Origin: Phycisphaerae bacterium
GTDB lineage: Bacteria > Planctomycetota > Phycisphaerae > UBA1845 > Fen-1342
DNA: 64,000 nt
Direction of reading: 5' to 3'
Assembly (NCBI GenBank): GCA_050115495.1
Contig: JASFQK010000004.1
Span: 96,001 to 160,000 of the forward strand
Made by a program: the position numbers and the translations under genes. Shown piece after piece: positions 1-38,065 of this stretch; the stretch's first letter is position 1, and each line of letters begins with the position of its first letter. Below the pieces are notes generated by a model that was not told the origin of the DNA, ran no database searches, and saw nothing but the letters and a program-made list of their open reading frames with translations.

Positions 1-2154
1 CTCGGGTGTATTCCACGCGTCTGTCGCATGGCAGGCCGCGCAGTACGCCGGACCGCCGGGCATGCTCGGCAGCCACCCGGTCGAGAAGTCCTGCAGGCGA
101 TTGCCATGGCCTACCATGTCGTACGCCCCGCCCTCCTGTACGACGTACAGGTCGCGGGCCGCGTGGATCTTGTGGATCATCACCTTGAAGTCGATGGTGT
201 CCGCCGCCGGATCCTGCGTTCCCGAACCGGGCGTCGGCAGGTCTTCGGCACCGGCGGTGTGGCACACGACGCAGTTCTCGACGCCGCGCCGCGTGTTGCC
301 GTGGAAGCGCAGATCACCGTGGCAGTCGTTGCACTTCGCGTCGGTCACGAAGCCAGGATACGCCGCCGCCGTCCCCGCCGAGCCGACGCGGATCGCGTAC
401 ACGCCCGGCATCGACGTGTCGCGGTACGTCGTCCCATCCAGCGTGAACTGGCGGTACGCGTAGACCATCACCGTGTAGCTGCCGGCGCCGAGCGCCCGCC
501 CGCTCAGCTCGCCCCAACCGTCCGCGTACGTGAAGTCCGCCGAGTCATTGAGCGGAGCCGGATACGTCGCCGGAATGGCGTCCGGGCTCGTATACGTGAA
601 CGGTCCCGTGCCCGTCGTCGGCACGCCCCCGGCGCCCTTCAGGCTCACCGTCGACGTGCTGCCGGCGGGGATGATCTTCTGGTAGTTCTCGACCGGGCCG
701 GCGATGACCATGTTCACCGTGTAGTCGCTGATGTCGACCGCGGTGCCGCTCTGATCCAGGATCTGGAACGTAACCACCGGCGTGTCGCCGACCGCGAAGA
801 AGCCCGACCCGCTGTTGCCCGTCACTGACTGGATGACCACCTGCGGGTCGACCGCCAGTGTCGGGTCGATGGCCGGCGGGACGTGCACGGCGGCAACGCC
901 CCACGTCTGGTTGGCCCCGTGGCAGTACGTGCAGGACCCGTCCGGCGCCGCATGGGTGATGCCGCCCGGTTCCGTCCGGTACGCTGCATCAGAGAGCTGA
1001 TCCTTCGTCAGCGTGCCGTTGGCGACAGCGGCGTTGTCCGGATCGAGGATCGTGCCCGCAGTGAAGTCGATGTCGTCGTGGCAGGTCTGGCACTGCTTCC
1101 GCACCAGGTTGCTTTCCGAGTAGATCTCGGCTTCCTGCGTCGCCCCGCCGTGGCAGGCCTGGCAGTTGCGCATCTGCTCGTTGAAGCCGGTGCCGCCCGG
1201 CATGAACGGGAACGCGATCTCGGAGTAGTCGTGGACAGACTCACCGTAGCCGATGACCTCGTAGTGGTACGGGTCCGCCCCGTTGGCCGTGGCTGCGACC
1301 TCGCGCAGCTCTGCCCCGCGGTGCAGCCGGTGGATCAGCTCGGAGAACTCGATCGACACGCCCGTCGTCGCCTTCGCCGCGTCGCTCGAAGTACGGTCTT
1401 CGGAGCCGGCGGTGTGGCACAGCACGCAGCCGGTGACTTTGTAGCGGTTCTCGCCGTGTGCCGAGAGCTCCGCGTGGCACGCGTTGCAGTTCTCTTGCAG
1501 GACGAGCTGCCGCGGCGAGACCGTGGCTGCGCCGATGGCGAAGTCGGCCGTGACGTCGCCGGCCTTGCGGACGCTGGCCCCATCGACCGTGAACGTCCGC
1601 CGGGCCTCGATGCCCACCGTGTACGTTCCATCCATGAGCGCGTCGCCCGTCATCTCACCGTCCGCCGTGCCGAACGCCGCCGAATCGTAGTACGGAGCGG
1701 CGTAGACGCTGGGCATGCCGTCGGCGAACGTATACGTGTAGGAGCCGTCGTCGTTGACGGTGACGCTGTCCGCGTCGCCCTCGGGCTCAATGACACGCTG
1801 GTAGTTGCTCGCCGGCCCGGACACGTAGATGGAGAAGCGGTCGAGATCGTCGAAGTCGATCGTCTCGCCGTCGTCGTCTTCGAGCGTGAACGTCACGCTG
1901 AACGCGCCGCCGGGCGTCACGGCAGCGCCGCCGTTCACGGCGGTGACGGCGACGATGGTTTCCGGCGGCGTGGCGCCTGCGTCGAGACCGGCCGGACCCG
2001 TCGGACCCTGTTCACCCGCCGGGCCTTCCGGCCCTTCCGGGCCTTCCGGGCCTTGCGTCGCCAGGTCCAGCGGACAGCCGCCCAGCCCACATAGCACCAC
2101 CACGGCGAGTCCCAGGATCCCGAGGCTGCGCCATCCCGTCATTACGCGCGCCAT
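1..2154 (-). CDS. OmcA/MtrC-family multiheme c-type cytochrome lipoprotein (probably decaheme; 3' end beyond left edge)
   Basis: Hand translation from ATG 2154 (RBS GAGGAG): MARVMTGWRSLGILGLAVVLCGLGGC lipobox, then a collagen-like GPEGPEGPEGPAGEQGPTGPAG. Heme motifs CNACH, CVLCH, (IHRLH), CQACH, CQTCH, CTYCH, then a second beta-domain and CNDCH, CVVCH, (MIHKIH), CAACH. Two-fold layout typical of MtrC/OmcA; 8 CxxCH visible. Missing from the ORF track because there is no stop in the window. Confidence 0.9.
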   Translation of the reverse strand, partial: MARVMTGWRSLGILGLAVVVLCGLGGCPLDLATQGPEGPEGPEGPAGEQGPTGPAGLDAGATPPETIVAVTAVNGGAAVTPGGAFSVTFTLEDDDGETIDFDDLDRFSIYVSGPASNYQRVIEPEGDADSVTVNDDGSYTYTFADGMPSVYAAPYYDSAAFGTADGEMTGDALMDGTYTVGIEARRTFTVDGASVRKAGDVTADFAIGAATVSPRQLVLQENCNACHAELSAHGENRYKVTGCVLCHTAGSEDRTSSDAAKATTGVSIEFSELIHRLHRGAELREVAATANGADPYHYEVIGYGESVHDYSEIAFPFMPGGTGFNEQMRNCQACHGGATQEAEIYSESNLVRKQCQTCHDDIDFTAGTILDPDNAAVANGTLTKDQLSDAAYRTEPGGITHAAPDGSCTYCHGANQTWGVAAVHVPPAIDPTLAVDPQVVIQSVTGNSGSGFFAVGDTPVVTFQILDQSGTAVDISDYTVNMVIAGPVENYQKIIPAGSTSTVSLKGAGGVPTTGTGPFTYTSPDAIPATYPAPLNDSADFTYADGWGELSGRALGAGSYTVMVYAYRQFTLDGTTYRDTSMPGVYAIRVGSAGTAAAYPGFVTDAKCNDCHGDLRFHGNTRRGVENCVVCHTAGAEDLPTPGSGTQDPAADTIDFKVMIHKIHAARDLYVVQEGGAYDMVGHGNRLQDFSTGWLPSMPGGPAYCAACHATDAWNTPE

Positions 2155-2232
2155 TGTTGATCTCCTCACCGGTTGTTGACTTGGCCCAGTGCGTGAATAC
2201 CAGAGATGCGTCACATCCTTCGGCTCGCGTTC

Positions 2233-2260
2233 ATATTACCGCTTCGCCGCGCGCACGCAA
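2233..2260 (-). promoter_or_regulatory. possible sigma70-type promoter of the mtrC-like gene
   Basis: On the minus strand TTGCGT-16 nt-TAATAT, about 80 nt upstream of the ATG. Confidence 0.3.
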
Positions 2261-2359
2261 GCAGAATGCTCTTCTGAACTGCATGTTTCGTCGCCCATCC
2301 CCCATTGAGGTGAGTGCTATCCCCCCAACTGGTGTCGGAAACTCTCGCGCCGCGCGTCG

Positions 2360-3007
2360 TCAGGCCAGATGTCGTCGCACCGCCTGGCTCACCGCCGCCG
2401 CCCGCGACGTGACGCCCAGTTTGCGATAGACCTTCTTGAGATGCGAGCGAATGGTGGACGTGGCCACCCCCAGCGTTTCCGCCATCTCCTCATTCCGCTG
2501 CCCCGTTCCCAGCAGCCGCAGCACCCGCAGCTCCTGCGCCGTCAGGGCCGTCTCCGGCGGCGGCACCTCCGACCGGGCCGTCAGGTCCAACAGTCGCTGG
2601 GCCACCTCGTTCGTCAGCTCCACCCGGATGTTGCATTCGCTGGTGACGTCGCAGAAGAGCAGGGCCCGGCCGATCTCCCGCCCGTCGTCGTCCACGTACC
2701 GCGTGGCGTTCACCTTAAGCGACAGCCGCTCGGGCCATTGCACTGTCACATCGCCCATGACATTACCGTCGGCCTGCCCGGCTTCCTGCCAGAATGATGC
2801 CAGCCGCAGGTCTTTGAGCAGGGCCGGCAGCGGCTGGCCGCGACACGTCTCGCCCGGAGCTCCCAGCACCCGCTCTGCCGTCCGGTTCAGCCACACGACC
2901 TTCCCCGCCCCGTTCGTGAGAATCAGTCCCACACACAGGCCGGACAGCGCCTGCGTGACCAGGCAGTTCTCCAGGCACTCGCTCTGCAAGTCCTCCACTT
3001 GCCGCAT
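2360..3007 (-). CDS. PAS-domain LuxR-family transcriptional regulator
   Basis: N-terminal PAS-like GLILTNGAGKVVWLNRTAERVLG; C-terminal LuxR HTH LTAQELRVLRLLGTGQRNEEMAETLGVATSTIRSHLKKVYRKLGV. Confidence 0.9.
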   Translation of the reverse strand: MRQVEDLQSECLENCLVTQALSGLCVGLILTNGAGKVVWLNRTAERVLGAPGETCRGQPLPALLKDLRLASFWQEAGQADGNVMGDVTVQWPERLSLKVNATRYVDDDGREIGRALLFCDVTSECNIRVELTNEVAQRLLDLTARSEVPPPETALTAQELRVLRLLGTGQRNEEMAETLGVATSTIRSHLKKVYRKLGVTSRAAAVSQAVRRHLA

Positions 3008-3340
3008 CAGCAGACTCCGCGGGCCATGTTGTCTATCCCGGGCCGCGGGCCCATCGCCCGGCCTGCCCCGGTCCAGAGGAATCGCCCCCCAACGTCACCG
3101 TCGCGGCCCAGACGCCGCCTCGCTCGATGTGTGGATACTCCCGACATGCACCACTCTCTCCCGTAGCATAGCGCTCGGCGGCCCCATGAGCAATACATTC
3201 CGGGCCCCTGGTGTCCGCCCCGGCTGGGCTCATCCGCCGGCGGCAAAGAATGCTCCTGTGCGGGCGACCGGGTTTGAATTGCTCGGCCTCGCCTGTAGAA
3301 TGCCGTTCCCAACTCCGGCGAGCCAAGGGCCGTGTGGCAC

Positions 3341-5260
3341 ATGAGCAGTCTTCCGCCCGCAGTGTCGAGATCCGACCGCCGCGCTGTAGACGTCCGGCCG
3401 TCCCGTTGCGACCGCCTGCGCTGCGGCGCCGCCGTGCTGCTGCTCGCGGGTCTGCTGGCCGGCGTGGCCCGTGGCGACGATCCCGACAACTGCCTCCTGT
3501 GCCATCAGTACCGCGGCCTTGGTCGCTACGATGCCGCCACCGGCGTCTATCATCTCTACGCCGTCAATCCCGCCATCGACCGGCAGCACCTCGGCCCGCA
3601 TTCCCGCGTGGCCTGCACGGCCTGCCATCGGCGTGAAGAAGTCGGTGTCGTGCCGCACCAGCCGGTCACGCCCGTCAACTGCACGCAGCGCTGCCACCTG
3701 CCCAGCACGACGGACATGGTCCGCGAGTTCAGCCACGCCAACGTGGCCGACATGCTCACCCGCAGCGTGCACTCGCCGGAGCTGTTGGCCGGGCTCAGCT
3801 TCACGGGCGGCCCGCTGCTCGGCGCGGGCCAGTCCTTCTGCCTCTATTGCCACGATGAACCGGTCTTCCGCGGCGCCGGCGATCCCGGTCGGACTGTCTG
3901 CCGCGTCGGCGAGCATGCTTTCGACCGCTGCGACGTCTGCCACGGCTCGCAGATCCCCACCGATGCGCCGTACTACTTGCGCCACGTCGCCTCGCGGTTG
4001 CAGCGAGCCCGGCCGCCGCTCGAAGCCGCCCAGATCTGCGCGGTTTGCCACAGCGACCCGCACGTCATCGCCGGCCGTCTGCCCGACACCGTCGCCAGCT
4101 TCGTCCGCAGCTTCCACGGCAAGGCCGCTCTGCTCGGCGAGACGACCACGGCCGATTGTGTCTCCTGCCACGTGCCCGCCGGCGCCAATGCCCACCTGAT
4201 GCTCAGCCGCACGGACCCGCGGTCGGCGACGCATCCGAACCACGTGGCCGATTCCTGCCGCAGCCTCGACTGCCACCCCGGCGCCGACGTCCGCCTGGCC
4301 GCCGCCGCTGTGCACCTGAATCTCTCCGAGGCACGCGGGACGATCGAGTTCGCCGTCGCCGCCGCGTTTATCCTGCTGACCATCTTCACCTTCGGCCCCT
4401 CGCTGGCGATCGCCCTGCTCGAATTGGGCCAGATCGTCATTGGCCGTCACTATCCGGCGGGGCACCAGACGCTCGTCCTGACCCAGGCCGTCCTGCGTCA
4501 TCCCGACGGCCCGCGCCGCCTCCAGCGCTTCACCGTGAACCAGCGCGTCCAGCACTGGATTCTCGCCGTGCTGTTCACGCTGCTCGCCCTCACCGGCTTC
4601 CCCATGAAGTTTGCCGACCAAGCCTGGGCCAAGTCGGTCATCGATACGTTCGGCGGGCTCAGCATGGCCCGCACGATCCACCATTGGGCCGGCCTAGCGC
4701 TCGTCACCGGTCTGCTGGCTCACCTGCTGTATGTGGCCGGCACGCTGCTCCAGCGCTGGCGTACGCGGATGCCCGACGGCAGTCGCCGCGGCCTGATCGG
4801 CACGCTCTTCGACCTGCCCATGTGGGTCTCGCCGCGCGACGGCGTGAAGATGCTGCTGCTGCTCGGCTATCTCGCCGGCCTGCGGCGTGCTCCGCCGACC
4901 TTCGGCCGCTTCAGCGTCAAGGAGAAGTTCGAGTACATCGGCGTGTTCTGGGGCACGATCCTGCTGGGCATCACCGGCATCATGCTTTGGGGCGAGCAGT
5001 TCACCTCCCGCTTCGTCAGCGGCCGCGTGCTCAACATCGCCCTGATCGCCCACACGTACGAGGCGTTCCTGGCGATCATCCACGTCGGCATTCTGCACAT
5101 CTGCAACGTGATCTTCGCCCCCAACGCGTTCCCGCTCTCGCTGGCCACGATTACCGGAGCCACGCCCGTCGCCGAACTGGCCGAGAACCACAGCGAATTC
5201 GTGACCGAGGCCGCCAGTGACCTCGGCGTGGAGATTGAAAGTGATGGCCGGCACCACTAG
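3341..5260 (+). CDS. multiheme cytochrome c fused to FdnI/HydC-type cytochrome b (CbcL-like quinone oxidoreductase)
   Basis: Signal peptide, 6 CxxCH plus CTQRCH and CRSLDCH, a TM helix, then RFTVNQRVQHW..LTGFP, TIHHW, RFSVKEKFEY..VFWG and AHTYEAFLA..ILH, typical of a diheme cytochrome b. Confidence 0.85.
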   Translation: MSSLPPAVSRSDRRAVDVRPSRCDRLRCGAAVLLLAGLLAGVARGDDPDNCLLCHQYRGLGRYDAATGVYHLYAVNPAIDRQHLGPHSRVACTACHRREEVGVVPHQPVTPVNCTQRCHLPSTTDMVREFSHANVADMLTRSVHSPELLAGLSFTGGPLLGAGQSFCLYCHDEPVFRGAGDPGRTVCRVGEHAFDRCDVCHGSQIPTDAPYYLRHVASRLQRARPPLEAAQICAVCHSDPHVIAGRLPDTVASFVRSFHGKAALLGETTTADCVSCHVPAGANAHLMLSRTDPRSATHPNHVADSCRSLDCHPGADVRLAAAAVHLNLSEARGTIEFAVAAAFILLTIFTFGPSLAIALLELGQIVIGRHYPAGHQTLVLTQAVLRHPDGPRRLQRFTVNQRVQHWILAVLFTLLALTGFPMKFADQAWAKSVIDTFGGLSMARTIHHWAGLALVTGLLAHLLYVAGTLLQRWRTRMPDGSRRGLIGTLFDLPMWVSPRDGVKMLLLLGYLAGLRRAPPTFGRFSVKEKFEYIGVFWGTILLGITGIMLWGEQFTSRFVSGRVLNIALIAHTYEAFLAIIHVGILHICNVIFAPNAFPLSLATITGATPVAELAENHSEFVTEAASDLGVEIESDGRHH

Positions 5261-6404
5261 CCCCGGCGGCAAAGGCCCCGCGAAGCGTCGCGGTCTCACC
5301 CGCGCCGCCCTGCGCGGCTTCGGCCGCTTCGCCGGCCAACTCATCCAGCGCGCCTACGCCCTGGCCATCATCGCCGTCGTCGGTTGGCTCAGTTGGCGCG
5401 CCTTGTATTACCTCATCGCCTCGCTGATTCTTCCCGGCGGCATTCCCGTTCAGATCGGCGAATTGCCCCTGCGCCTCGACGAGCAGACGCTCCGCACCGA
5501 ACCCACCAAGTGGGCCGGCATCACCGCCACGCAGAACCCGCGTGCCCCGCTGGCGCACTATCACCGCCTGGACGGCTGGTTCCAGATCGACCGCGCCAAC
5601 GACTGCACCCGCGCCGGCTGCCACGAGCCGCTCCCGCATCAGCGCAGTGCGGCGCTACGCTCGTTCCTGAACATGCACGCCACCACGCTGAACTGCACCG
5701 TCTGCCACCTCGAGCCGGCGGCGCGACCCGTACCGCTCGTCTGGTATACGCTCGACGATGGCCGCGTGACCGGCCCGCCCGCACTGCTGCGTGCTTACGA
5801 CTGGGTCACCGGTCCCGCCGGCGAGGCCGCCCTCGAACATCCGACCGCCGCCGACCAGGATGAGATCGTTGCGCTCCTGCGACAGGCCGCCGACGAGGCC
5901 GACGGTGAGCCCGCGCTCCTCCGCCTCGTCGAGCGCACCCGCGCCGTCCGTCCCGACGGCGACGCCTTCCGCACCGCCCTTACTAATCTTCGCCGTGATT
6001 TGCCCGCCCACTTCCGCGGCGACTACGGCGCGAAGCTCGCCCCTCGTGGCGACGACAGCGGTCAACCGTTGCTGCACCTGCCCGCCACAACCGGCGCCGC
6101 CGAGGAGTTCCTCGCCGCCGGCGAATCGCTGAGCGCGGACCAGCGCCAGGCGCTCGTGACCCGCATGCACGAACCGCTCCGGCCGGCCGGCCCGCTCTGC
6201 ACGGCGTGCCACACGCCGGACGGACCGCTCCTCGACCTCGCCGGCGCCGGCTATCCGCCGCAGCGTCTGGCCACGCTGTACGGCTTGTCCATCGCCCGGG
6301 CGATCGAGGACGTCGCTACCGGCCAGCCGCTGCACATGCCCACGTTCGTTGTGCCGCCCGCGTTGCCGGCCAGTGCCCCGGCATCCTCACAGGTCGAGCC
6401 GTGA
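5244..6404 (+). CDS. membrane-anchored triheme c-type cytochrome
   Basis: N-terminal TM helix; CTRAGCH, CTVCH, CTACH; overlaps the upstream stop. Confidence 0.75.
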   Translation: MAGTTSPGGKGPAKRRGLTRAALRGFGRFAGQLIQRAYALAIIAVVGWLSWRALYYLIASLILPGGIPVQIGELPLRLDEQTLRTEPTKWAGITATQNPRAPLAHYHRLDGWFQIDRANDCTRAGCHEPLPHQRSAALRSFLNMHATTLNCTVCHLEPAARPVPLVWYTLDDGRVTGPPALLRAYDWVTGPAGEAALEHPTAADQDEIVALLRQAADEADGEPALLRLVERTRAVRPDGDAFRTALTNLRRDLPAHFRGDYGAKLAPRGDDSGQPLLHLPATTGAAEEFLAAGESLSADQRQALVTRMHEPLRPAGPLCTACHTPDGPLLDLAGAGYPPQRLATLYGLSIARAIEDVATGQPLHMPTFVVPPALPASAPASSQVEP

Positions 6405-9400
6405 GTCGTGCATCGCGTCATCGTCGATATGCGATCGCGTGCCTGCTGTTGGCCGCATCGTCTGTCGCCGCGCTCGCCCAGACGGCTCCGCCGTTCATCG
6501 CCGAGCCGGCGCTGATCATCACGCTCGAAGGCACCACGCCGATGCGGCTGCCGACCGCGGTGGCCGTCGGTCCCGACGGCACGATCTTCGTGTGCGACGG
6601 CGTCGCCGACCGCGTCCTTTGCTTCTCGCCCGCGGGCGACTTGCTGAGCGAAATCCGCGACGTCGGCGGTAAGGCTCTCTCCCGCCCCACAGGCGTGAAG
6701 GTCGACGCCGCCGGTTTGCTCTGGATTGCCGACACCGGCCACGGCCGCGCCGTTGCTCGCGGGCCCGACGGCCGCCTCGTCCACGAGTTGTCTTGGCCGT
6801 CCGATGCCGCCGCGCCGGCCGACGTCACCGACGTCGCGATCAGCCCCGACGGCACGGTCGCCTGGCTCGTCGACAACGATGCTCACCGCATCGCTCGCTT
6901 TGACATTGCCGCCGGAACCGCGCGTCTCATCGGCGAGCCGGGCCAGTCGCTCGGCCAGTTCTACTATCCGTTCATGCTGGCGACCGGTCCTGCCGGCGAT
7001 CTCTTTGTCAGCGAATCACTCAACGGTCGTGTGCAGATCCTCGCCGCCGGCGGTCGCATCCGCGGCCGCCTCGGCGCATTCGGCGCCGACCCCGGCCAAC
7101 TCTTCCGCCCCAAGGGCCTCGCCGTCGACGCCAACGGTAACATCTGGGTCGCCGACGGCATCTTCGGCGTGATCCAGATCTTCCAACCGACGGGCGTTCT
7201 GCTCGACATACTGCGCGACACGGCGGGCAACCCACTGAAACTCGAGACCCCGTGCGGCATCACCCTCGACGGCGCCGGCCATCTGTACGTCGCCGAGCCC
7301 TGGGCGAATCGCGTCCGCCAGTTCAACCTCACGGTCGATCCGCGGCCGATCCCACCCTGGCCCAGTCGCCCGTCGACGAGCCCACTCACCGCGCAGCCGC
7401 GGGCCTGTGCCGTCTGCCACCTGGAATGGGTCGAGCCGCTGGCCCACGGCGTGGCGACGCCGCTAGCGTCGGTTCCGCCGGACACGGCTGCCGAGCCCAT
7501 CGCCAGCGACCCGCGGATGTGCCTGTCGTGCCATGACGGTTCGGTGCGTGATTCGCGACGCCGCGTGTGGGCAATGGCCGGCCATCACGTCGGCGTACCG
7601 CCGCCCGCGGACGTGCCCGTCCCGCGCGACCTACCCCTCGCGCATGGCCTGCTCGCTTGTCGCACTTGCCATACGGCCCACGCCTTGAGCGAGCCCACCG
7701 CCGCCGGCGAGTCCATCATCTTCCTCCGCGTTCGCGAAACTGCCGGCGAACTCTGCACCGGCTGTCACGCGCAACAAATGGCCGGCCCCGCCGCCGGCAT
7801 GCACAAACTCGGTGACATGCCCGGCGATATACCCGCGAGCCTCCTCGCTGCTGGTGGCCGACCCGGCCGCTCGCCTACTGAGCTCGCCTGCCTCACCTGT
7901 CACGCGACTCACGGCGTTACCGGCGAAACGGCCCTCGTCGTTCCGAGCCACTCGCCGGCCATGTGCGCCGATTGCCACGAACTACAACAGCCGCAGCTCT
8001 TCGGGTCCGGTAACACCGCCGGCCATCCGCCGCACCCAACTCTCGCCGCTCACCAGATCGAAGTCATGCAACAAGTCGGTGGCGTACTCGGACCGCAGAA
8101 CACGCTCGACTGCGCCACGTGCCACCAGCCGCACGCTGGCGACGGCGCGACGCATCTCCTCGCCGCACACTTGAAAGTCGACACCATCTGTCGCGAGTGT
8201 CACGAGCCACAGCGCGCGGTGGAAGGCTCGCTGCACGATATACCGCCCGATAACTCCGCAACGCACAACGCTTGCCGTACTTGCCACAACTACCATACAG
8301 ATGCGCGCACGCCGCAGCCGACCGAGCTCGATCCCGCCGGCCATTGCCTGAGCTGCCACCAGCCCGGCCAGCCCGGCGCGGCCCGCGTCCTGGGCTCGCC
8401 GAACCACCCCGAGGTCGCCTGTGCCGGCTGCCACGATCCGCACGAATCGCAGCACGGCCACTTCCTCTCCGCCCCGGCCGGCCAGCTCTGTAGCAGTTGT
8501 CATGAGGAAGAGGCCCGCGTCGCCGGCGGCACGCACGATTGCCTGACCGATTCGAGCCAGTGGCCGTCAGAAGCCGCCAATACGCACGATACCTGCCTCG
8601 CCTGCCACCGCGCCCACGGCAACGAGCAGACCGGCCTCTACCGCCTCGCCGCCGCCGACTCCACCGGCTCAAGTGGCGTATGCCTCTCCTGCCACCCGTC
8701 GGCTGTGCCCGGCGGTCGCGAGGCGCTGGCCCTGGCGCACCCGCTCCCGGCTGCTAGCGTCGCTGCCGAGATGAGTCTTCCGCTCGATGGCGTCGGTCCC
8801 GACCGCCAGATCGCCTGCCGCACCTGCCACGATCCCCACGCCGGCCCCGGCTCCACGACGATGCTCCGCACGCAAGTGCCCGGCGGCGCCGGCGAGCAGG
8901 TCTGTTTCGCGTGCCACGAGGAAACCGCCAATATCCACAGCATTGGCCACGCAGCAGGTTCCCTCCGCGACGCCGGCTTCGCGTCGGAATCGTGCCAGCC
9001 GTGCCACGTGACGCACGCTGCCGCCGACGCGATCGATCCGCAGCTCCTGTGGCCCAAGGCCCTCGCCGAATACGCCGGCATGCCCGACGTCGCCGTCGCC
9101 GACCAGCCGTGCGTTGCTTGCCATCGTGTTGGCGGCCCGGTGACCCCGCCGACCATCGCCACGCATCCCGAGGCCGAGATGCTTAATCTCGAGTCGCCGA
9201 CCTCGCCGGGGTATCTGCCGCTATTCAACGAGCGCGGCGAGGTCGATCCGCAGGGCCACATCGCCTGCCGCACGTGCCACCTGACGCACGGCCGCAGCAT
9301 GCCGGCGGTACTGCCCGCGGAGGTCCGCAACGTCGCCGGCCGCGAACTCCGGGCCCGCTCCTGGCACGTCCGCTCGTTCGGGCCCGGCAACGTCTGCACG

Positions 9401-9505
9401 ACCTGCCACGGGCCCGATGCCCTCCGACGCTTCATGTACTTCCACAATCCCGCGCGTCGCGGCGGGCCGATCGAAGGCGGCGCCCCGCCCGTGCTCGCGC
9501 CCTGA
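6401..9505 (+). CDS. NHL-repeat beta-propeller fused to a 20-heme cytochrome c
   Basis: GTG start in a GTGA overlap; signal peptide ending AALA; NHL repeats (PTAVAVGPDGTIFVCD, PKGLAVDANGNIWVAD); 20 CxxCH counted, many as doubled CxxCHxxH..CxxCH. Confidence 0.88.
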   Translation: MSRASRHRRYAIACLLLAASSVAALAQTAPPFIAEPALIITLEGTTPMRLPTAVAVGPDGTIFVCDGVADRVLCFSPAGDLLSEIRDVGGKALSRPTGVKVDAAGLLWIADTGHGRAVARGPDGRLVHELSWPSDAAAPADVTDVAISPDGTVAWLVDNDAHRIARFDIAAGTARLIGEPGQSLGQFYYPFMLATGPAGDLFVSESLNGRVQILAAGGRIRGRLGAFGADPGQLFRPKGLAVDANGNIWVADGIFGVIQIFQPTGVLLDILRDTAGNPLKLETPCGITLDGAGHLYVAEPWANRVRQFNLTVDPRPIPPWPSRPSTSPLTAQPRACAVCHLEWVEPLAHGVATPLASVPPDTAAEPIASDPRMCLSCHDGSVRDSRRRVWAMAGHHVGVPPPADVPVPRDLPLAHGLLACRTCHTAHALSEPTAAGESIIFLRVRETAGELCTGCHAQQMAGPAAGMHKLGDMPGDIPASLLAAGGRPGRSPTELACLTCHATHGVTGETALVVPSHSPAMCADCHELQQPQLFGSGNTAGHPPHPTLAAHQIEVMQQVGGVLGPQNTLDCATCHQPHAGDGATHLLAAHLKVDTICRECHEPQRAVEGSLHDIPPDNSATHNACRTCHNYHTDARTPQPTELDPAGHCLSCHQPGQPGAARVLGSPNHPEVACAGCHDPHESQHGHFLSAPAGQLCSSCHEEEARVAGGTHDCLTDSSQWPSEAANTHDTCLACHRAHGNEQTGLYRLAAADSTGSSGVCLSCHPSAVPGGREALALAHPLPAASVAAEMSLPLDGVGPDRQIACRTCHDPHAGPGSTTMLRTQVPGGAGEQVCFACHEETANIHSIGHAAGSLRDAGFASESCQPCHVTHAAADAIDPQLLWPKALAEYAGMPDVAVADQPCVACHRVGGPVTPPTIATHPEAEMLNLESPTSPGYLPLFNERGEVDPQGHIACRTCHLTHGRSMPAVLPAEVRNVAGRELRARSWHVRSFGPGNVCTTCHGPDALRRFMYFHNPARRGGPIEGGAPPVLAP

Positions 9506-10025: not shown

Positions 10026-12482
10026 ATGGACCCACGGTCGTCTCACCGCCTCCGCTGTCGGCGCGTCGCGGTGCTATTCGCCGCCGGCCTGGCGCTGGGG
10101 GCGGGCCTGTTGCCGGCACACGCGTCGGATCGCGTGGTGCTGTGCGAAGAGTTCACCAACTACTACTGCGGTTCGTGCGCATTCGCCGGCCCGGCGCTGG
10201 ACCTGTTGTTGGACACGTACCCCGACTCGCTGGCCTTCATCCAATATCAGATATTTGACGCCGAATATTCGAAACCCTGGGGCGACAACCGCTGGGCGTA
10301 CTACGAGGCGGAGTACACACCCGCGGCCATCTTCGACGGCACGGACAAGCTGGAAGGCGCCATCGAGGACCTCGACCAGCAGTACACCATCTACCGCGCC
10401 AACCACTTCCTGCCCGAACGGGCCAATCCCACCGATGTGACCGTCGAGTTCGACAACGTCCTTCAGCTCGGCGGCCCGAACTACCTCGTCGACGTCGCGG
10501 TCAGCGTCGAGCCCGGCGGTGTCGCCAAGACCATGGACGTCTACATCGTCCAGGTCCTCGATCACTGGCCCGACACCAAGCCTTATCACCGCAACGGCTT
10601 CAAGCAGGCCGCCCCCGTGGAGCAGATCACCGTCGGCCCCGGCCAGACCGGCTACGCCCAGTACATCTTCTCCCTCGACGACGACAGCGCCGAGCGCGAG
10701 GAAGACGTCAAGTTCATCGCCTGGGCCCAGCAGCCTGAGCCCGGCTTTCCCGCAGCCGTGTACCAGGCCGCCGTCCGTGTCTGGCCGCTGATCACCATCC
10801 CCGGCGACGCCGATGCCGACGGCTATCCGGACGCCGTCGACGACTGCCCCAACCGCTACGACCCCGACCAGCTCGACAGCGACGGCGACGGGTTCGGCGA
10901 CGCCTGTGACAACTGCGACGAAACCTGGAACCCGGACCAGACGGACACCGATGAAGACGGCTTCGGCGACGATTGCGACACGTGCCCTGTGCTGCACCAC
11001 TACAACCAGGCCGACACCGACGCGGACACCATTGGCGACGCCTGTGACTCGTGCCCCGACGTTTACGCCCCGGCGGGCGTCGACGCCTTCGGCCGCTCGA
11101 TCGGCTGCCTCGACTTCGACTGCGACGTCGATACGGATGACCTGCTGGTGCTGAACCGCTGTCTGAGCGGCCCGGATGACACCACGCCGCCGGCCACTTG
11201 CACGCCGGCCGAGTTCGCCCGCGCCGACGTCGACGACGACGGCGACGTCGACCTGGCCGACTTCGCCCTGCTTAGTCAGAACTGCACCGGACCGCTCATC
11301 AGCCCGGCCACGTACGTCGGTGCGGCCAACTGCGCCGACTGCCACTCCGGCAACCACGCCGACTGGATGCAGACCATTCACGCCACCGCCTTCAGCACGT
11401 TGGTGAATGACGGCGCGGGCGACAACGTCCTGTGCTTCCCCTGCCACTCCGTCGGCTACGGCAAGGCCAGCGGCTTCGTCGATCTGGACACCACGCCCGA
11501 TCTGGCCAACGTGCAGTGCGAGAACTGCCACGGTCCCGGCAGCAACCACTTGAGCGACCCGTACGGTTTCCCGCTGGAGCGGCCGCTCGATGCGGACCTC
11601 TGCGGCGCCTGTCACCAGTCCTGCCACGGTCTGTGCGGTGAGAACCACCACCCGCAGTACGAGCAGTGGTCCGAGTCGAAGCACTCCACGGCCCTCATCG
11701 ACATCCAGTGGCTGCCCGACACCGAACAGGAATGCCTCCAGTGTCACTCCACCGACTATCGCCTCGCTCCGCCCGGTGAGGAGCCGCAGGTATGGGAGGC
11801 CATCTACGACCTCGAGTGCGTCGCCTGCCACGATCCGCACGGCGGCCCCAACGTCGGACAGCTTCGCCTGCCCCCGTACGAGCTCTGCGCCGAGTGCCAC
11901 ACCATGGGCGACGTGATGCCGCCCGACATGCCCGATCAGCCGCAATCCGAAATGCTGCACGGCTTCGGCGGCTTCGCCCTGGACGGCACGCCGCTTAACG
12001 GCCCATACAGCATGCACTGGTGGGGCATCGCGGACGAGTGCGCCGTCTGCCACGTGCACGAGGAGCCGTACGGCGGCCCACAACAGCCGGTGAACAGCGG
12101 CCACCTCTTCGTGCACAACCTGCGGGCCTGCCTGCCCTGTCACACCGAGGAGACGGCCACGCTGCTCGTCGAGGGCATGCACGCCGAAGTGACGCTGCGC
12201 CTGACGCGGATCGCCCGCTACTTCACGCCGGGCGACCCGCTCTACATCGATCCGGCGACGCTGCCCCCGGCGGAGCTGGCCCGCTACGAGATCGCCCGGT
12301 TCAACTATCTGCTGGTTGAGGCGGACCGTTCGTTCGGCTCGCACAACCCCGAGTACGCCCGGGCCCTGCTGGGCGAGACCGAGGCGTTCCTCGACATTCC
12401 GCCAATCCTCGGTCCGGGTGGTGGCGGCGAAGGCCCCGTACCAATTCCCGCCTGCGACTATTACGCGGAGGGCTGCCCGTGA
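10026..12482 (+). CDS. secreted multidomain multiheme cytochrome (Omp28/thioredoxin-like, TSP3 repeats, dockerin-like, c554/c552-like heme domain)
   Basis: Signal peptide ending PAHA; EEFTNYYCGSC; DxDxDGxGDACDNC repeats; DVDDDGDVDLADF; YVGAANCADCH and 9 CxxCH in total. Confidence 0.82.
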   Translation: MDPRSSHRLRCRRVAVLFAAGLALGAGLLPAHASDRVVLCEEFTNYYCGSCAFAGPALDLLLDTYPDSLAFIQYQIFDAEYSKPWGDNRWAYYEAEYTPAAIFDGTDKLEGAIEDLDQQYTIYRANHFLPERANPTDVTVEFDNVLQLGGPNYLVDVAVSVEPGGVAKTMDVYIVQVLDHWPDTKPYHRNGFKQAAPVEQITVGPGQTGYAQYIFSLDDDSAEREEDVKFIAWAQQPEPGFPAAVYQAAVRVWPLITIPGDADADGYPDAVDDCPNRYDPDQLDSDGDGFGDACDNCDETWNPDQTDTDEDGFGDDCDTCPVLHHYNQADTDADTIGDACDSCPDVYAPAGVDAFGRSIGCLDFDCDVDTDDLLVLNRCLSGPDDTTPPATCTPAEFARADVDDDGDVDLADFALLSQNCTGPLISPATYVGAANCADCHSGNHADWMQTIHATAFSTLVNDGAGDNVLCFPCHSVGYGKASGFVDLDTTPDLANVQCENCHGPGSNHLSDPYGFPLERPLDADLCGACHQSCHGLCGENHHPQYEQWSESKHSTALIDIQWLPDTEQECLQCHSTDYRLAPPGEEPQVWEAIYDLECVACHDPHGGPNVGQLRLPPYELCAECHTMGDVMPPDMPDQPQSEMLHGFGGFALDGTPLNGPYSMHWWGIADECAVCHVHEEPYGGPQQPVNSGHLFVHNLRACLPCHTEETATLLVEGMHAEVTLRLTRIARYFTPGDPLYIDPATLPPAELARYEIARFNYLLVEADRSFGSHNPEYARALLGETEAFLDIPPILGPGGGGEGPVPIPACDYYAEGCP

Positions 12483-13426
12483 GAATCTCGCGACGTGATT
12501 TCCTGAAAGCCGCCGCGGCGGCCACCATGGCCGGGCATCTGGCTCCGGCCGCCCTGGCTCAGTTGCAGAAGGTCCTGGGGCGGGGCGGCGGACCGCGGGT
12601 GATCTGGCTCCAGGGTGCCGGCTGCGACGGCTGCGCCATCTCCGCCCTGAACAGCATTCACTACGCGACGATCGACGACGTCCTGCTCAACACGATCGAT
12701 CTACGCTTCCAGAACAACCTCCAGGCCGCCGCCGGCGACCTCGCCGTCTCGGCCATCGAGGGCGGCACCGCCGAGCCCGGTTACATCCTGATCGTCGAAG
12801 GGGCGATCCCCACCGGCGCCGCGGGCAAGTACTGCCGCTTGTGGCCGGGCATGACCATGCTCGACGCCCTGAACACCTACGCCGCCAACGCCAGCTACAT
12901 CATCGCCCTCGGGGCCTGTGCCTGCTTCGGTGGTGTCACCGGCGGAGCACCCAACCCGACCGCCGCCAGCGGTGTCGGCGGGATCCTCGGCGACGATCCC
13001 CGGTTGATCAACCTGCCCGGCTGCCCGGCGCATCCCGACTGGCTGGTCGGCACGATCACCTACCTGTTGACCAACGGGCACGTGCCGCCGGTCGACGCCC
13101 ATCGCCGACCGCTCCAGTACTTCGGCGAGCGCATCCACGACAACTGCTTCAAGCGCCAGAAGCACTGCGGCGAGTTGACCTTCGCCGAGAAGCTCGGCGA
13201 CGAGGGCTGCATGGAGTACCTCGGCTGCAAGGGCAAGCACACGTACTCCGATTGTCCCATTCGCAAGTGGAACAGCAGCGGCCCGCAACAGTACGGCGTG
13301 AACTGGTGCGTCGGGGCGCACAGCCCGTGCCTGGGCTGCGTGAATCCGACTTTCCCCGACGGCATGTCGCCGTTCTACGTGTACCTGCCCGGTGGGAAGG
13401 ACGAGGGTGAAGGCGGCGAGGGCTAG
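12479..13426 (+). CDS. [NiFe] hydrogenase small subunit (group 1, Tat-exported)
   Basis: SRRDFLK Tat motif; WLQGAGCDGC, GACACFGG, PGCPAHP, HDNC..C..LGCKG, WCVGAHSPCLGC; no C-terminal TM helix. Confidence 0.95.
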   Translation: MRISRRDFLKAAAAATMAGHLAPAALAQLQKVLGRGGGPRVIWLQGAGCDGCAISALNSIHYATIDDVLLNTIDLRFQNNLQAAAGDLAVSAIEGGTAEPGYILIVEGAIPTGAAGKYCRLWPGMTMLDALNTYAANASYIIALGACACFGGVTGGAPNPTAASGVGGILGDDPRLINLPGCPAHPDWLVGTITYLLTNGHVPPVDAHRRPLQYFGERIHDNCFKRQKHCGELTFAEKLGDEGCMEYLGCKGKHTYSDCPIRKWNSSGPQQYGVNWCVGAHSPCLGCVNPTFPDGMSPFYVYLPGGKDEGEGGEG

Positions 13427-13494
13427 GGTACGGTCCGGGCCCGATCGCCGGTTGCTGAAGACGAGCTGATGACCTCGCGAAGAGGAACTGAGCA

Positions 13495-14943
13495 ATGCCG
13501 ACCACGATCACGCTTGACCCCGTGACCCGCATCGAGGGCCACCTGGAAATCGAAGTCACCGTGGACGTTGTCCGCGGTCAGCAGCAGGTCATCAGCGCCC
13601 GCAGCATGGGCAAGATGTTCCGCGGCTTCGAGATCATCCTGGCCGGCCGCGATCCGCGCGACGCCGCCATGTACACGCAGCGCATCTGCGGCGTCTGCCC
13701 CGTCTCGCACGCCATGGCTTCGAGCCTCAACCTCGACAACGCTTTCGGCGTGACACCGCCGGACAACGGCCGCATCCTACGCAACCTCGTGCTCGGGGCG
13801 AACTTCATTCAGTCGCACCTGCTGCACTTCTACCACCTGTCCGTCCTGGACTATGTGAACACCACCGGGCTGCTGGACAAGTCGCCCTGGACGCCGCGCT
13901 ACGTCACCGCCGACATGGCCACGGGCGCGAACGCCGCCACGCTCGTCTCGCACTACGTCGCCGCCCTGGCCATGCGCCGCAAGGCGCACCAGATGGGGGC
14001 GCTCTTCGGCGGCAAGCTGCCCTGTCTCGGCTCCTTCGTCGTCGGCGGCTGCACCGAGGCCGTCACCGCCGAGAAGATCGCCGACTTCCGCAGCCTGCTC
14101 ACCGGGCTGCGGTCCTTCATCAACAACGTCTACCTAGCCGACGCCAACACGCTCGGCGACCTGTTCCCGACGTACTTCACGCTCGGCGGCGGCAACGAGA
14201 ACCTCCTGGCCTTCGGCGTGTTCGACCTCGATTCGTCCGGCGCGAACCGGTTTTTCTCGCCCGGCCGCTACGCCGGCGGGGCGTTTGAGTCGATGGATCC
14301 GGCCCAGATCGCCGAATACGTGATGCACTCGTGGTACACGCCCGCCTCGGGGAACCTGAACCCAGCGCAGGGCGTCACCGAGCCTGACGCCGAGAAGCAG
14401 GGGGCGTACTCCTGGCTCAAGGCGCCGCGCTACGCGGACCTGCCTTACGAGCTCGGCCCGCTGGCCCGCATGTGGATCAACCACGACTACACACGCGGCA
14501 TCTCGGCCATGGACCGCATCATCGCCCGCGCCCAGGAAACCAAGAAGATTGCCGACGCCATGGACGGCTGGCTCGACGAACTAACCCCGGACATGTCCGG
14601 CTACGCCACGAGCGAGATCCCCGTGCAGGCCACCAGCGCCGGCCTGACTGAGGCCCCGCGCGGCGCCCTCGGTCACTGGATGAACATCACAGACTCGACG
14701 ATCAGTCGCTACCAGGTCATCACGCCGACCGCCTGGAACGCCTCGCCCCGCGACGACGTGGACGTGCCCGGTCCGATCGAGGCGGCACTGGTCGGCGTCC
14801 CGGTCGCGGATATCGAACAGCCGGTCGAAGTGCTCCGCATCGTGCACACCTTCGACCCGTGCCTGGCCTGTGCCGTGCACATGGTTCGCCCCGGCGAGCG
14901 CGTGCCCGCCAGCCGTGTGCTGCTCCAGCCCGGACTCGGTTAG
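13495..14943 (+). CDS. [NiFe] hydrogenase large subunit (group 1a-like)
   Basis: DPVTRIEGH, RGFE, L1 RICGVCP, EAPRGALGHW, L2 FDPCLACAVH followed by a cleavable C-terminal extension. Confidence 0.96.
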   Translation: MPTTITLDPVTRIEGHLEIEVTVDVVRGQQQVISARSMGKMFRGFEIILAGRDPRDAAMYTQRICGVCPVSHAMASSLNLDNAFGVTPPDNGRILRNLVLGANFIQSHLLHFYHLSVLDYVNTTGLLDKSPWTPRYVTADMATGANAATLVSHYVAALAMRRKAHQMGALFGGKLPCLGSFVVGGCTEAVTAEKIADFRSLLTGLRSFINNVYLADANTLGDLFPTYFTLGGGNENLLAFGVFDLDSSGANRFFSPGRYAGGAFESMDPAQIAEYVMHSWYTPASGNLNPAQGVTEPDAEKQGAYSWLKAPRYADLPYELGPLARMWINHDYTRGISAMDRIIARAQETKKIADAMDGWLDELTPDMSGYATSEIPVQATSAGLTEAPRGALGHWMNITDSTISRYQVITPTAWNASPRDDVDVPGPIEAALVGVPVADIEQPVEVLRIVHTFDPCLACAVHMVRPGERVPASRVLLQPGLG

Positions 14944-14967
14944 CCGCCCCGACGAGAAGGACGGTTG

Positions 14968-15465
14968 ATGCTCGTGCAAAACGGTCAAGACGAACAGACC
15001 GCCACCGACCGCTGCCCCGTCCTGGTGCTCGGTCTCGGCAACATCCTGTTGCGCGACGAGGGCGTCGGCGTGCGCGTGATCGAGACGCTGCGTGAGCGGT
15101 CTCGGCCGGAGGGCGTCGAGTTCTTCGATGGAGCCACCGCCGGCCTCGACCTGCTGGACGTCCTCGCCGATCGGCGGACCGTCGTCGTCGTGGACGCCAT
15201 CGCCGGCGACTACGCCCCGGGCACGGTCCTGCGCCTGACGCCGGAAGACCTGCTGCCGAGCGATCATCCCGGCGTCTCGCTGCACGAGATGGGCATCCTG
15301 GAGACGCTGACCGTCGCCAGACACCTGGGTAATGCCCCGCACGAAGTTGTCATCATTGGTATTAAGCCGTTCGAGGTCGATTACGGCCTGAACCTCACGG
15401 ATGAAATGCAACGCCTGATGCCGGACATCCTGGCCCTGGTGTCGGCGGAACTGGAGAAGCTGTGA
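14968..15465 (+). CDS. hydrogenase maturation endopeptidase (HyaD/HybD family)
   Basis: [29 protein letters not shown] motifs; follows the large subunit. Confidence 0.93.
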
Positions 15466-15509
15466 CGCGCGGCGGAGCCTGGCCGCGAGTCCGCAAGGGA
15501 AGCTTTACG

Positions 15510-16295
15510 ATGAAACCGCTCGCCTTCATCCCGGTCGTGGTCCTGGTAGCGCTCCCGGTGCTCGTGGCTTTGCTTCCGGCGACGACCCCCGTCGCAGTCG
15601 CCGAGCCGGCCTGGGGCCAGAACTGCTTGGCCTGTCACGACTTACTGCAAATAAACCTGCTCAATGTCGTTGGGGCGGACCTCATCGCCGACCCCGACGA
15701 GAGCGGTACCGGCGCCCCGGATCGCGGGCCGCTCCCGGTGTTCCGCGTCGGCCCGGGCGGGAACAAGACCATCCGTGTCGCGGTCTCCGGCCTGATGACC
15801 GGTGATACCTATGCGGTCGAGCTGTTCCGGCTGCGGTTCCCGGGCGTCGTGCAGGGCGGCGAATTGACTTACTCCGGCGATTGCGCCTGGGCCGAGTGGG
15901 GCAATCACGCTAACTACTTCTCCGATCCGGACGTGTCCGCCCCGTGGCAGCCCGGCGCGACCACGCATGAGTTCGACATTCATATCGGCCCCGATGCCGC
16001 GGAAGACTTCTACGACGTGGCCTTCGCCGTGGCTGGCAAGTTCGGCGGGGACGATTCACAGCTCTTCTACGCCGCAGAACACTTCTATATTCAGGTTCAG
16101 GGGCAAGTCGGTGATGTGAATTGCGATGGGACGGTCGACAACTTCGATATCGCGGCGTTCGTGCTGGCGCTAACCAACCCCAGCGCATACGAGGCCCGCT
16201 ACCCGGACTGCGACCGCATGCTGGCCGATATCAACCAGGACGGTCTGGTGGACAACTTCGACATCAGCGCGTTCATCGACCTGCTGACGGGCTGA
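15510..16295 (+). CDS. secreted monoheme (CLACH) protein with C-terminal dockerin-like domain
   Basis: Signal peptide, GQNCLACH, beta-rich middle, [26 protein letters not shown]. Confidence 0.75.
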
Positions 16296-16474
16296 TGGCG
16301 GGGGGGATCGCTGGTTTGGCGCCTGCCGGCGCTAGCTCAGGCGAGTGAAGGCGTTGCGGTTGGAGCAATCTTTGCCTACAATTAATGTCCTGAGGGGCTC
16401 GGGTGGGAAGGCGAGCGTCGGCAGTGTGCGCGGCCGGCGGCCGAAGTGAAATGCCGTCTCAGGAGACCGGATCA

Positions 16475-17560
16475 GTGACCGGACAACGTAGGTGTTGGGG
16501 CCGGCAGGGGGTCCGGGGGTTCACGCTTATCGAATTGCTGGTGGTGGTGGCGATCATCGCCCTGCTGATCTCGATTCTGCTGCCGGCGCTGTCCGACGCG
16601 CGGGAGCAGGCGAAGGCCGTCAAGTGCGGGGCCAACCTCCAGCAAATCGGTCTCGGCCTGCTGAATTGCATGACTGAGAACCAGGATTGCGTGCCCCTGA
16701 TCGACGACGGCGTTGGGTCGCCCTCCGTGGTGTACACTTGGCTCGACGCCCTGTACGACCTGGATTACACCGGGATTGTGGACATCCAGTGGTGCCCGAC
16801 GGACGATCATCGCTCGCCGGCGATGCTGGAGCGGGTCGCCAATGGCTGGAACTTCTCCTGGGTGCGGAAATTCGGGGCGGGGGAGTCCCTGAAGCCGGGT
16901 TCCCGCTCGAGTTACGCGCTGAACTCGCACATCGCCTACAGCCACCCTCCCTATCCGGAGTGCAGCCCGTCGCGCCAGGTCATGGTGACCGACGGGTTCT
17001 GGAACTGGTTCGGGAACATGAGCGCCCACTACACGATGGCGCCGGCGGCGCTGGGCTACTCTGTTCCGGTGCTCGACACCTACGCCGGCTGGCAGGGCGG
17101 CATGATCGGCTTCCGTCATGGGCGCAACCTCGCCACGAACATGGTCTTCCGCGATGGCCACGTGGTGAAGATCACGCCCCGCCGACCGCACAACGTCCGC
17201 GAGTACCGGGATTTCCTGCCACGCAGCGCCACGCGCATGGTGGATACGGCGAAGTACTACACGTGGCTGCCGGGGGAGACGACCACCCGCCTGGACGTCT
17301 TCGGTTACGACCAGCGCTACTCGGAAATCGAAGACTGGATGCCCAACGGAGCGGATCCGCGCTGGCCGCCGTTTTCGACCGGCACGCAGCTTCCACCGAG
17401 CTGGGAGTATCGAGACTGGGGTTCGACCGGCGCCCCCGAGGCCTGCCGGGAGGCTCGTGCCTGGGTCCCATATTACTACCCGCGTGAGCTGAGCCCTGCG
17501 TGGCGGACCGCGAACGGCAAATGGACCAAGCTCCCGTCCAATCCGGATGATCGGAAGTAG
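16475..17560 (+). CDS. prepilin-type N-terminal cleavage/methylation protein (H-X9-DG-like)
   Basis: [52 protein letters not shown] start after AGGAG (ATG 16451 is an alternative). Confidence 0.88.
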
Positions 17561-36504: not shown

Positions 36505-36536
36505 GCCGAGCCTCTGCAACCGCAGTCTGTTGAACG

Positions 36537-36572
36537 AGGCCGCCCGGTTCGTCGCCGGGCGGCTTCTTTTTT
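36537..36572 (+). terminator. intrinsic terminator
   Basis: GCCGCCCGG-ttcgtcg-CCGGGCGGC followed by TTCTTTTTT. Confidence 0.8.
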
Positions 36573-36942
36573 CCATGCGCGTGCGGGCGGGTAGGTCGCA
36601 CGGACGCGGGGCGTACCTGTCTGGTGCTGGTTTGATGTTAGTTATTATCGGGCCATGCGCGGCTCGTCGTCGCCGGCCTTTGGCGGGGCCGAAAAAAAAA
36701 TAAAAAGTGACGGTTCCCGCGCGTGGTGTTTGACGCCCGCCTTCGCTTACGAGAAAGTGGAGCTGTCTGGGGGGGATGGGTACGTCCATCCTACAGACCG
36801 CCGCCCGAATGTTGTATTCCGGCCGGCGTTAACCTCCACGTGCGGGGCCTGCGTGCCGCCCGGCGGTGCTGCCGTGACGGTCTGCGGGTTGACCCGAGAG
36901 GCACAATGAATCGTGAGCGCCGAAGCGCAAAGGAGAAACGAA

Positions 36943-37998: not shown

Positions 37999-38029
37999 GC
38001 CGACTCTCCGAAACCACAGTCTGCTCTAG

Positions 38030-38065
38030 GAAGCCGCCCGGCTTGTCGCCGGGCGGCTTCTTTTT
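38030..38065 (+). terminator. intrinsic terminator
   Basis: GAAGCCGCCCGGC-ttgtc-GCCGGGCGGCTTC followed by TTTTT. Confidence 0.85.

Follow-up and report, generated by a model that had tools for sequence, protein, structure and literature searches.

In uncultured Phycisphaerae, an operon encodes a hydrogenase without a membrane anchor together with two dockerin-bearing c-type cytochromes, a nonaheme protein (cytA) and a monoheme protein (cytB). Two lone cysteines, one in the hydrogenase small subunit and the other in cytB, co-occur almost perfectly across related loci, which is a new finding. The reading that we prefer, with a probability of about 0.45, is that the exported, unanchored hydrogenase is disulfide-linked to cytB, probably held at the cell surface among other tagged proteins, and likely feeds cytA. 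The window, that is, the whole stretch of DNA analyzed, covers 64,000 nt of the Phycisphaerae bacterium GCA_050115495.1 (contig JASFQK010000004.1, positions 96,001-160,000, forward strand; GTDB lineage Bacteria; Planctomycetota; Phycisphaerae; UBA1845; Fen-1342).

The operon and its hydrogenase

Five ORFs, all on one strand (+), occupy positions 10026-16295 in the order cytA, small subunit, large subunit, protease and cytB, with the following features:

10026..12482, +, cytA: 818 aa, nine CxxCH; signal peptide, Omp28-like thioredoxin/Ig, TSP3, dockerin-like and nonaheme parts
10167..10178, +, CxxC of the Omp28-like domain; the window copy has Cys, not Sec
11106..11294, +, internal type B dockerin-like module of cytA, kept in 25/25 full-length orthologues
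11310..12404, +, nine-heme domain of cytA with C-terminal three-helix bundle
11619..11636, +, Cys-His-x-x-Cys insertion of cytA (C533, C537), immediately preceding the His-His motif of heme 2
12479..13426, +, small subunit of the hydrogenase, with a Tat signal, the ligands of three [4Fe-4S] clusters and a polar C-terminal tail
13166..13168, +, lone extra Cys230 of the small subunit, seven residues past the HxxC of the distal cluster; the surrounding loop is basic
13495..14943, +, [NiFe] large subunit, group 1a-type: C-terminal CxxC with Cys (not Sec), cleavable tail
14965..15465, +, hydrogenase maturation protease
15510..16295, +, cytB: signal peptide, one CxxCH, acidic Ig-like beta-sandwich, C-terminal dockerin
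15624-15638, +, N-terminal heme motif CxxCH of cytB
15882..15884, +, lone non-heme Cys125 of cytB, found in hydrogenase-linked copies and absent from unlinked homologues
16110-16292, +, C-terminal type A dockerin of cytB

Gene set, gene order and translational coupling can be read directly from the DNA: the GTGA at 12479-12482, in which the GTG of the small subunit overlaps the stop of cytA, is present as an earlier note on this DNA had described it, and the 4-base overlap is conserved in 22 of 27 operons. A comparison of 80 related loci recovered the five-gene operon in 25, all within one LSU clade. Judged by sequence, the carriers are uncultured Phycisphaerae and the unit is conserved. The earlier note was also right that the operon has no cytochrome b gene, as the five ORFs show, and that the small subunit, with its polar tail and no TM helix, has no membrane anchor. 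Neither absence is special, because no small subunit read among the 80 loci has a hydrophobic tail and the enzymes of known structure that come closest are soluble.

These closest enzymes are the periplasmic NiFeSe hydrogenases, which are the best PDB matches of the two subunits (E 5e-132 and 2e-60) and account for all of the top 11 matches of the large subunit. Like HysAB of Desulfovibrio vulgaris and Desulfomicrobium baculatum (PDB 5JSU, 2WPN, 1CC1), the present enzyme has a Tat signal, a Cys-ligated medial cluster, no TM tail and no cytochrome b. It differs in having Cys where HysAB has Sec, an extra lone Cys at the distal cluster, and two dedicated, tagged operon cytochromes in place of free cytochrome c3. 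Identity as a [NiFeSe] hydrogenase was rejected: a TGC codon specifies Cys at the C-terminal CxxC, and NF045518 stayed below its cut-off. Cys occupies the Sec position in all 81 aligned large subunits. Both CxxC motifs of the large subunit are intact, NF033181 scored 600.1 (cut-off 600), and by closest matches and motifs the hydrogenase is a group 1a-type [NiFe] enzyme, the accompanying tree comprising relatives of this enzyme only.

The monoheme protein and the two lone cysteines

No known family was found for the beta-sandwich of cytB. Its core is a generic Ig-like sandwich that structure comparison does not single out as a cohesin; around the heme and the cysteine its model scores under 50 (pLDDT). 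We use "cytochrome f-like" for a beta-sandwich c-type cytochrome with an N-terminal CxxCH, an x-Pro start and the N-terminal amine as a heme ligand.

How is cytB connected with the enzyme? A Cys230-type residue is present in all 51 distinct small-subunit loops from loci with cytB and absent from 38 of the 39 distinct loops without it, the one exception being a locus cut by the contig end; this correlation rests on few independent events, because the linked copies are related by descent, falling into two near-sister clades, with one joint absence in L042/L054. Several loci, moreover, were recovered by both searches, and many contigs with unlinked copies have short flanks. Ten sister small subunits have a CxxCH inserted into the same distal-cluster loop instead. 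Since the lone cysteines co-occur and the sisters graft a heme motif into the loop, cytB is likely a third, heme-bearing hydrogenase subunit, and it is probably tethered to the small subunit by a disulfide. Docking of cytB at the distal cluster appears quite probable, because it is there that sister enzymes lacking cytB graft the CxxCH, and because the loop is basic and cytB acidic. The charge, however, is not specific to docking, since the core of unlinked cytB is acidic too (-12.5). A disulfide between Cys230 and Cys125 in particular is slightly favored as the link; alternatively, one of the two cysteines would be a heme ligand.

The nonaheme cytochrome and its thiol centers

The nine-heme Omp28/TSP3/dockerin make-up that had been assigned to cytA was confirmed; its structure model is poor (pLDDT 53). 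From its sequence, cytA can be placed in the OcwA family of nonahemes: it has nine hemes, a c554-like first half, a three-helix bundle and the heme-2 His-His pocket, as do OcwA of Thermincola potens (6I5B) and 6QVM, which we take to be OmhA. In contrast to OcwA, cytA is without the extra beta-sheet domain (the alignment passes over OcwA residues 48-157) and the heme-5 His-His, the latter found in 0/45 hydrogenase-linked nonahemes, and has a heme-2 Cys pair, the Omp28/TSP3/dockerin fusion and the coupling to a hydrogenase. The heme-2 pocket reads HH in 41/45 and SH in 4/45 hydrogenase-linked nonahemes, and the C533/C537-type insertion preceding it is present in 45/45 of these versus 0/4 unlinked ones. 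Hemes are numbered after OcwA, following the available part of PMC6703420.

Of the 24 cytA orthologues that can be read at this site, 12 have an in-frame TGA in place of the first Cys of the CxxC in the Omp28-like domain (UxxC). A SECIS-like hairpin follows the TGA in 11/12, versus 2/12 of the comparison copies (7/7 versus 1/7 in metagenome loci), and SelA was found in 5/5 genomes. A TGA aligned to Cys, a downstream hairpin and the Sec machinery thus mark predicted selenoproteins, and this applies to cytA orthologues only. A thiol step cannot be general, however: in a second clade the partner is a multiheme of the tetrathionate-reductase type without an Omp28 domain, and the genome of the window has a UxxC also on an Omp28 paralogue that is not a cytochrome. 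An Omp28-related selenoprotein, NF045500, shares the thioredoxin-like UxxC/CxxC and Ig domains (E 2e-29, but at 103 of 200 bits below the cut-off), and HBP35 of Porphyromonas gingivalis (5Y1A) shares the thioredoxin-like and Ig domains (fold match E 2e-4); only cytA has the nonaheme fusion. MccSep, the polysulfide reductase of Geobacter sulfurreducens, is a possible working model, being, in the accessible text of PMC13510729, a multiheme cytochrome that cleaves S-S bonds and contains Sec, an Ig-like domain and a Cys at heme 2. Unlike cytA it is a pentaheme with Sec outside a thioredoxin motif and, as far as that text goes, has no hydrogenase operon.

Dockerin tags, possible location and proposed electron route

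Separate profiles found dockerin tags on 202 ORFs of the genome, 163 of type A and 38 of type B, mostly on secreted hydrolytic proteins (11 peptidases and 3 starch enzymes in a sample of 32). The monoheme protein indeed shares its tag type, A, with secreted enzymes of the window (ORFs 18245, 21562 and 52474). Two dockerin-bearing cytochromes do flank the hydrogenase genes, and no other c-type cytochrome of the genome is tagged, but the two carry different subtypes: that of cytA is internal and of type B (4.3 bits against the type A profile). Among 34 copies of cytB the tag is type B in 16, type A in 13, and other or cut in 5, and relatives of cytB end in IPTL-CTERM or PEP-CTERM tails.

The earlier note saw in the tags a means of assembling redox partners. 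A dedicated cohesin scaffoldin gathering these partners by two tags would agree with the real dockerin fold of the cytB tag found in structure comparison and with the retention of the internal module in all cytA orthologues. The cohesin-like partners that had been called for were found as two single hits over the cut-off elsewhere in the genome, one on a cohesin-HYR-dockerin protein like the adaptor of the "planctosome" proposed for Phycisphaerae (PMC6461901, part available). That hypothesis, whose peptidase dockerins this genome also has, concerns peptide breakdown, with no redox cargo in the part available. No cohesin lies in the operon, however, neither hydrogenase subunit carries a dockerin or cohesin, and the cytB sandwich is not specifically cohesin-like; about 200 tags face 2 to 4 single-cohesin hits, the two operon tags differ in subtype, and the cytB tag matches the type of its tagged neighbors in 13 of 14 loci having such neighbors. 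Such a scaffoldin is very improbable, and assembly through dockerins was not upheld; the ~200 tagged ORFs and a cytB tag whose type changes between genomes speak against an operon-specific scaffold. The paired lone cysteines of the small subunit and cytB suggest a different means of assembly. The note itself had named what would count against its idea, a tag on hundreds of unrelated proteins without enrichment near hydrogenases, together with no interaction or co-transcription; this is half borne out, with 202 tagged ORFs.

Localization through the tag and dedicated redox partners, the other part of that idea, gain indirect support from the conserved operon, the restriction of tags to cytA and cytB among the genome's cytochromes, and the CTERM tails of relatives. 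The chances are evenly balanced that the dockerin serves generally for export or anchoring; as such a tag, it would place the complex outside or on the outer membrane via a secretin route for folded proteins.

It is possible, if doubtful, that the enzyme serves ordinary periplasmic uptake: cytB and cytA would do the work that the cytochrome c3 pool does in Desulfovibrio, delivering electrons to a membrane cytochrome b or to porin-cytochrome systems encoded elsewhere, with the dockerins as passengers or only Ca-binding. Energy is conserved directly by such a membrane route. The periplasmic nature of the closest solved relatives and, in the available part of PMC13510729, of the selenium-bearing MccSep would fit, as would a multiheme-cytochrome b gene at 3332-5260, on the same strand 5 kb upstream, with a relative in 22/30 operon-bearing genomes, and the position of the operon at the end of a 24-kb island with 9 of the genome's 14 ORFs bearing at least three CxxCH. 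That gene, however, adjoins 0/80 related loci and was not found in 8/30 operon-bearing genomes (incomplete ones included), OmcA/MtrC occurs in only 10/30, the other 13 ORFs with at least three CxxCH are untagged, and peptidases and amylases, typical secreted cargo, bear the tags as well, which also exchange with exosortase tails.

The complex might instead run in reverse at the surface, taking electrons from reduced minerals, metallic iron or partner cells via cytA and evolving H2 for use by the cell, which we consider unlikely. OcwA-type hemes are mostly too positive for H2 evolution, and the thiol centers of cytA suit S-S bond reduction. Adhesin-like genes in sister operons and three further hydrogenase large subunits in the genome, which could consume H2, speak for it. 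So do the surface location of OcwA (PMC6703420, part available) and the precedent of the extracellular MIC hydrogenase FohAB of Methanococcus maripaludis, likewise a Tat-exported [NiFe] dimer without an anchor and proposed to be surface-held (PMC6181927, PMC12667266, parts available). FohAB, however, as described there, lies outside groups 1-4, has no cytochrome partners, and comes with its own TatAC and carbonic anhydrase. Identity with it was rejected, the window enzyme being group 1a-type without such an island.

In the preferred reading, then, Tat would export the hydrogenase dimer, the small subunit would be disulfide-linked to cytB as third subunit, and cytB would take electrons from the distal cluster and likely hand them to cytA. 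More tentatively, H2 would be oxidized and electrons would pass via the hemes to C533/C537 at heme 2 and then to the CxxC/UxxC domain, where an S-S substrate would be reduced, such as polysulfide, a protein disulfide or a small disulfide; alternatively, the hemes might reduce minerals or shuttles. Unless some of the electrons reach a membrane cytochrome b module elsewhere, the cell would then profit indirectly, through the removal of H2 or through redox conditioning. The support for this mechanism is all comparative; there is nothing unusual in a group 1a enzyme that is soluble and periplasmic and has c-type partners. The fullest version is speculative and rather unlikely to hold in every part: a surface three-subunit hydrogenase, its dimer bound covalently through a disulfide to a tagged monoheme subunit of cytochrome f-like type, would feed a nonaheme "thioredoxin reductase plus thioredoxin" selenoenzyme so that H2 reduces extracellular S-S bonds, the distal-cluster loop being, clade-wide, a heme slot filled by a subunit or a grafted CxxCH.

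Electron exit from soluble group 1a hydrogenases outside sulfate reducers has mostly been assumed. In this clade a single site offers two new solutions that can be put to the test, a monoheme subunit that is likely bound covalently and a heme motif grafted into the chain itself; in addition, the hydrogenase is coupled with a multiheme protein of the Sec/Cys kind. With such a colored cargo, the function of the dockerin tags that abound in planctomycetes can be tested directly. If the tag sorts proteins to the surface, the enzyme would be a hydrogenase that bacteria display there together with its own wire, and it would bear on the cycling of H2, sulfur and metals in anoxic sediments and digesters.

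The hydrogenase operon and its relatives

The source genome (5.97 Mb, GC 66.7%, completeness 92%), whose relatives are labeled as Phycisphaerae or other planctomycetes, carries on contig C4 an operon of five ORFs:

10026–12482, + strand: cytA, nonaheme cytochrome with an internal dockerin-like module
12479–13426, + strand: hydrogenase small subunit, with Tat signal and polar tail
13495–14943, + strand: hydrogenase large subunit
14965–15465, + strand: protease
15510–16295, + strand: cytB, monoheme cytochrome with a C-terminal dockerin

The best matches of both subunits are soluble periplasmic NiFeSe hydrogenases (E 5e-132 and 2e-60), from which the present enzyme differs in having Cys at their Sec position; judged from sequence, it is of group 1a type, a class assigned by best match. 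TatC and HypD are also encoded in the genome, as are three further [NiFe] large-subunit ORFs (strand not given), which by eye, from neighboring ORFs, have a sensory, Hox-like and Mvh-Hdr-like appearance:

C1:234357–235922
C7:11078–12535
C51:11568–13064

Among 80 loci retrieved by a large-subunit search, cytA occurs in 26 and cytB in 33; both are found together with both subunits in 25, and 23 of these also have the protease. The hydrogenase operon with its flanking cytochromes that the earlier note pointed out is thus a real system and is conserved, and the note's view of the cytochromes as dedicated redox partners is supported indirectly. A quick-search tree of relatives (77 rows) places the window within a clade of 30 rows (98% SH-aLRT), in which cytA is present in 27, two being cut by contig ends and one having a second cytB instead; the 4-base overlap between cytA and the small subunit is kept in 22 of the 27. 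When cytB alone was the query, 11 of 301 class genomes gave matches: five other close matches all lie inside this operon type (three duplicate earlier loci), and no hydrogenase was found within the stretch fetched around each of five distant ones. Such distant homologues without hydrogenase (L087–L091, L140–L146, L150–L157), some in tandem, end in PEP-CTERM or other tails; small, sorted and with a single heme, they appear from sequence to form a family that has no name as yet. The operon was not described in the literature searched, whose coverage excludes most subscription papers.

In a neighboring clade (L032, L033, L037), cytB stands alongside a tetrathionate-reductase-type decaheme with TSP3 and a C-terminal tag, and in Lentisphaerae and other sister enzymes the same slot holds an adhesin-like secreted gene (5/5 scanned). 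Adhesin-like genes within sister operons combine an FGE-sulfatase-like part with Ig, cadherin or InlB repeats (L030, L035, L040, L045, L047); by eye, others occur in L038, L046, L048 and L080, and fibronectin-like ones in L041 and L044. The Tat-bearing small subunits of ten loci (L038, L041, L043, L044, L047, L048, L058, L067, L070, L076), dispersed over the tree and never together with cytB, carry an insertion with a His and a CxxCH in the loop that follows the HxxC of the distal cluster, likely a heme c graft. Long C-terminal extensions, low-complexity Thr/Gly/Asp or other, are seen on the small subunits of L052, L053, L057 and L059–L062, with additional CxxCH motifs in L058 and L061; two small-subunit genes are present at some loci.

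Heme and thiol centers of the nonaheme cytochrome

The nine-heme part of cytA matches OcwA (E 1.6e-20), which is also its top fold match, from a poor predicted model. According to PMC6703420, OcwA has two five-coordinate hemes beneath His-His motifs. In the 45 nonahemes linked to hydrogenase, the heme-2 motif is kept (HH 41, SH 4), the heme-5 motif is lost in all, and a seven-residue insertion with two Cys directly precedes the heme-2 motif in all, compared with 0/4 unlinked copies (one further copy at a contig end was left unassigned). The N-terminal Omp28-like domain has CxxC in the window and UxxC, with in-frame TGA for the first Cys, in 12 of 24 readable orthologues; a conserved hairpin follows in 11/12 TGA orthologues versus 2/12 with a Cys codon, and SelA is present in 5/5 genomes tested. 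A relay from heme to dithiol to UxxC that would reduce disulfide bonds is a reasonable inference, for which MccSep (PMC13510729) provides a precedent; however, UxxC is also found on a non-heme paralogue, and the Omp28-like domain is missing from the second clade with the tetrathionate-reductase-type multiheme.

ARAGORN calls two tRNA-Sec in the source genome, and an Omp28-like paralogue near C14:114980 (− strand) has an in-frame TGA at UxxC. The nonaheme module also occurs in multiheme clusters without hydrogenase (L093, L094, L095, L097), once inside a 24-heme NHL protein.

Membrane modules, tags and the route of electrons

The lack of cytochrome b is clade-wide, because no small subunit read has a hydrophobic tail. 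Relatives of the multiheme-cytochrome b gene upstream in the window adjoin the hydrogenase in 0/80 loci; they are present in 22, and OmcA/MtrC in 10, of 30 operon-bearing genomes. The multiheme island (window 1–9505 and L081, C4:84671–105505) also includes an over-cut-off tetrathionate-reductase-type octaheme and a 778-aa ORF with a beta-barrel-like reading and no Pfam hit. Its members, and further window ORFs, are:

1–2214, − strand: OmcA/MtrC-family decaheme (over cut-off), extending beyond the window edge
3332–5260, + strand: multiheme-cytochrome b fusion, resembling CbcL
6206–9505, strand not given: NHL-multiheme proteins, 20 CxxCH
16403–17560, 24960–25844, 35452–39496, 42525–47723, 58389–59909, strand not given: five prepilin-type ORFs (four with DUF1559), an invasin/Big_1 repeat protein and a PEP-CTERM protein

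The operon's dockerins are the general tag of the source genome, and the idea that they assemble the redox partners is not supported; a dedicated cohesin scaffold is very improbable. Cohesin-HYR(-dockerin) proteins, encoded at L104:1359–4523 (C25) and C3:22998–26012, resemble the proposed planctosome adaptor. An enzyme running in reverse for electron uptake, like the MIC hydrogenase (PMC6181927, PMC12667266), seems unlikely, and a plain periplasmic c3-like module, which the soluble periplasmic best matches would suit, is a less probable though serious competitor. We favor, tentatively and at a probability of about 0.45, an exported three-subunit hydrogenase, in which the monoheme subunit would be tethered by a disulfide and likely sorted to the surface, and the nonaheme cytochrome would be the electron recipient.
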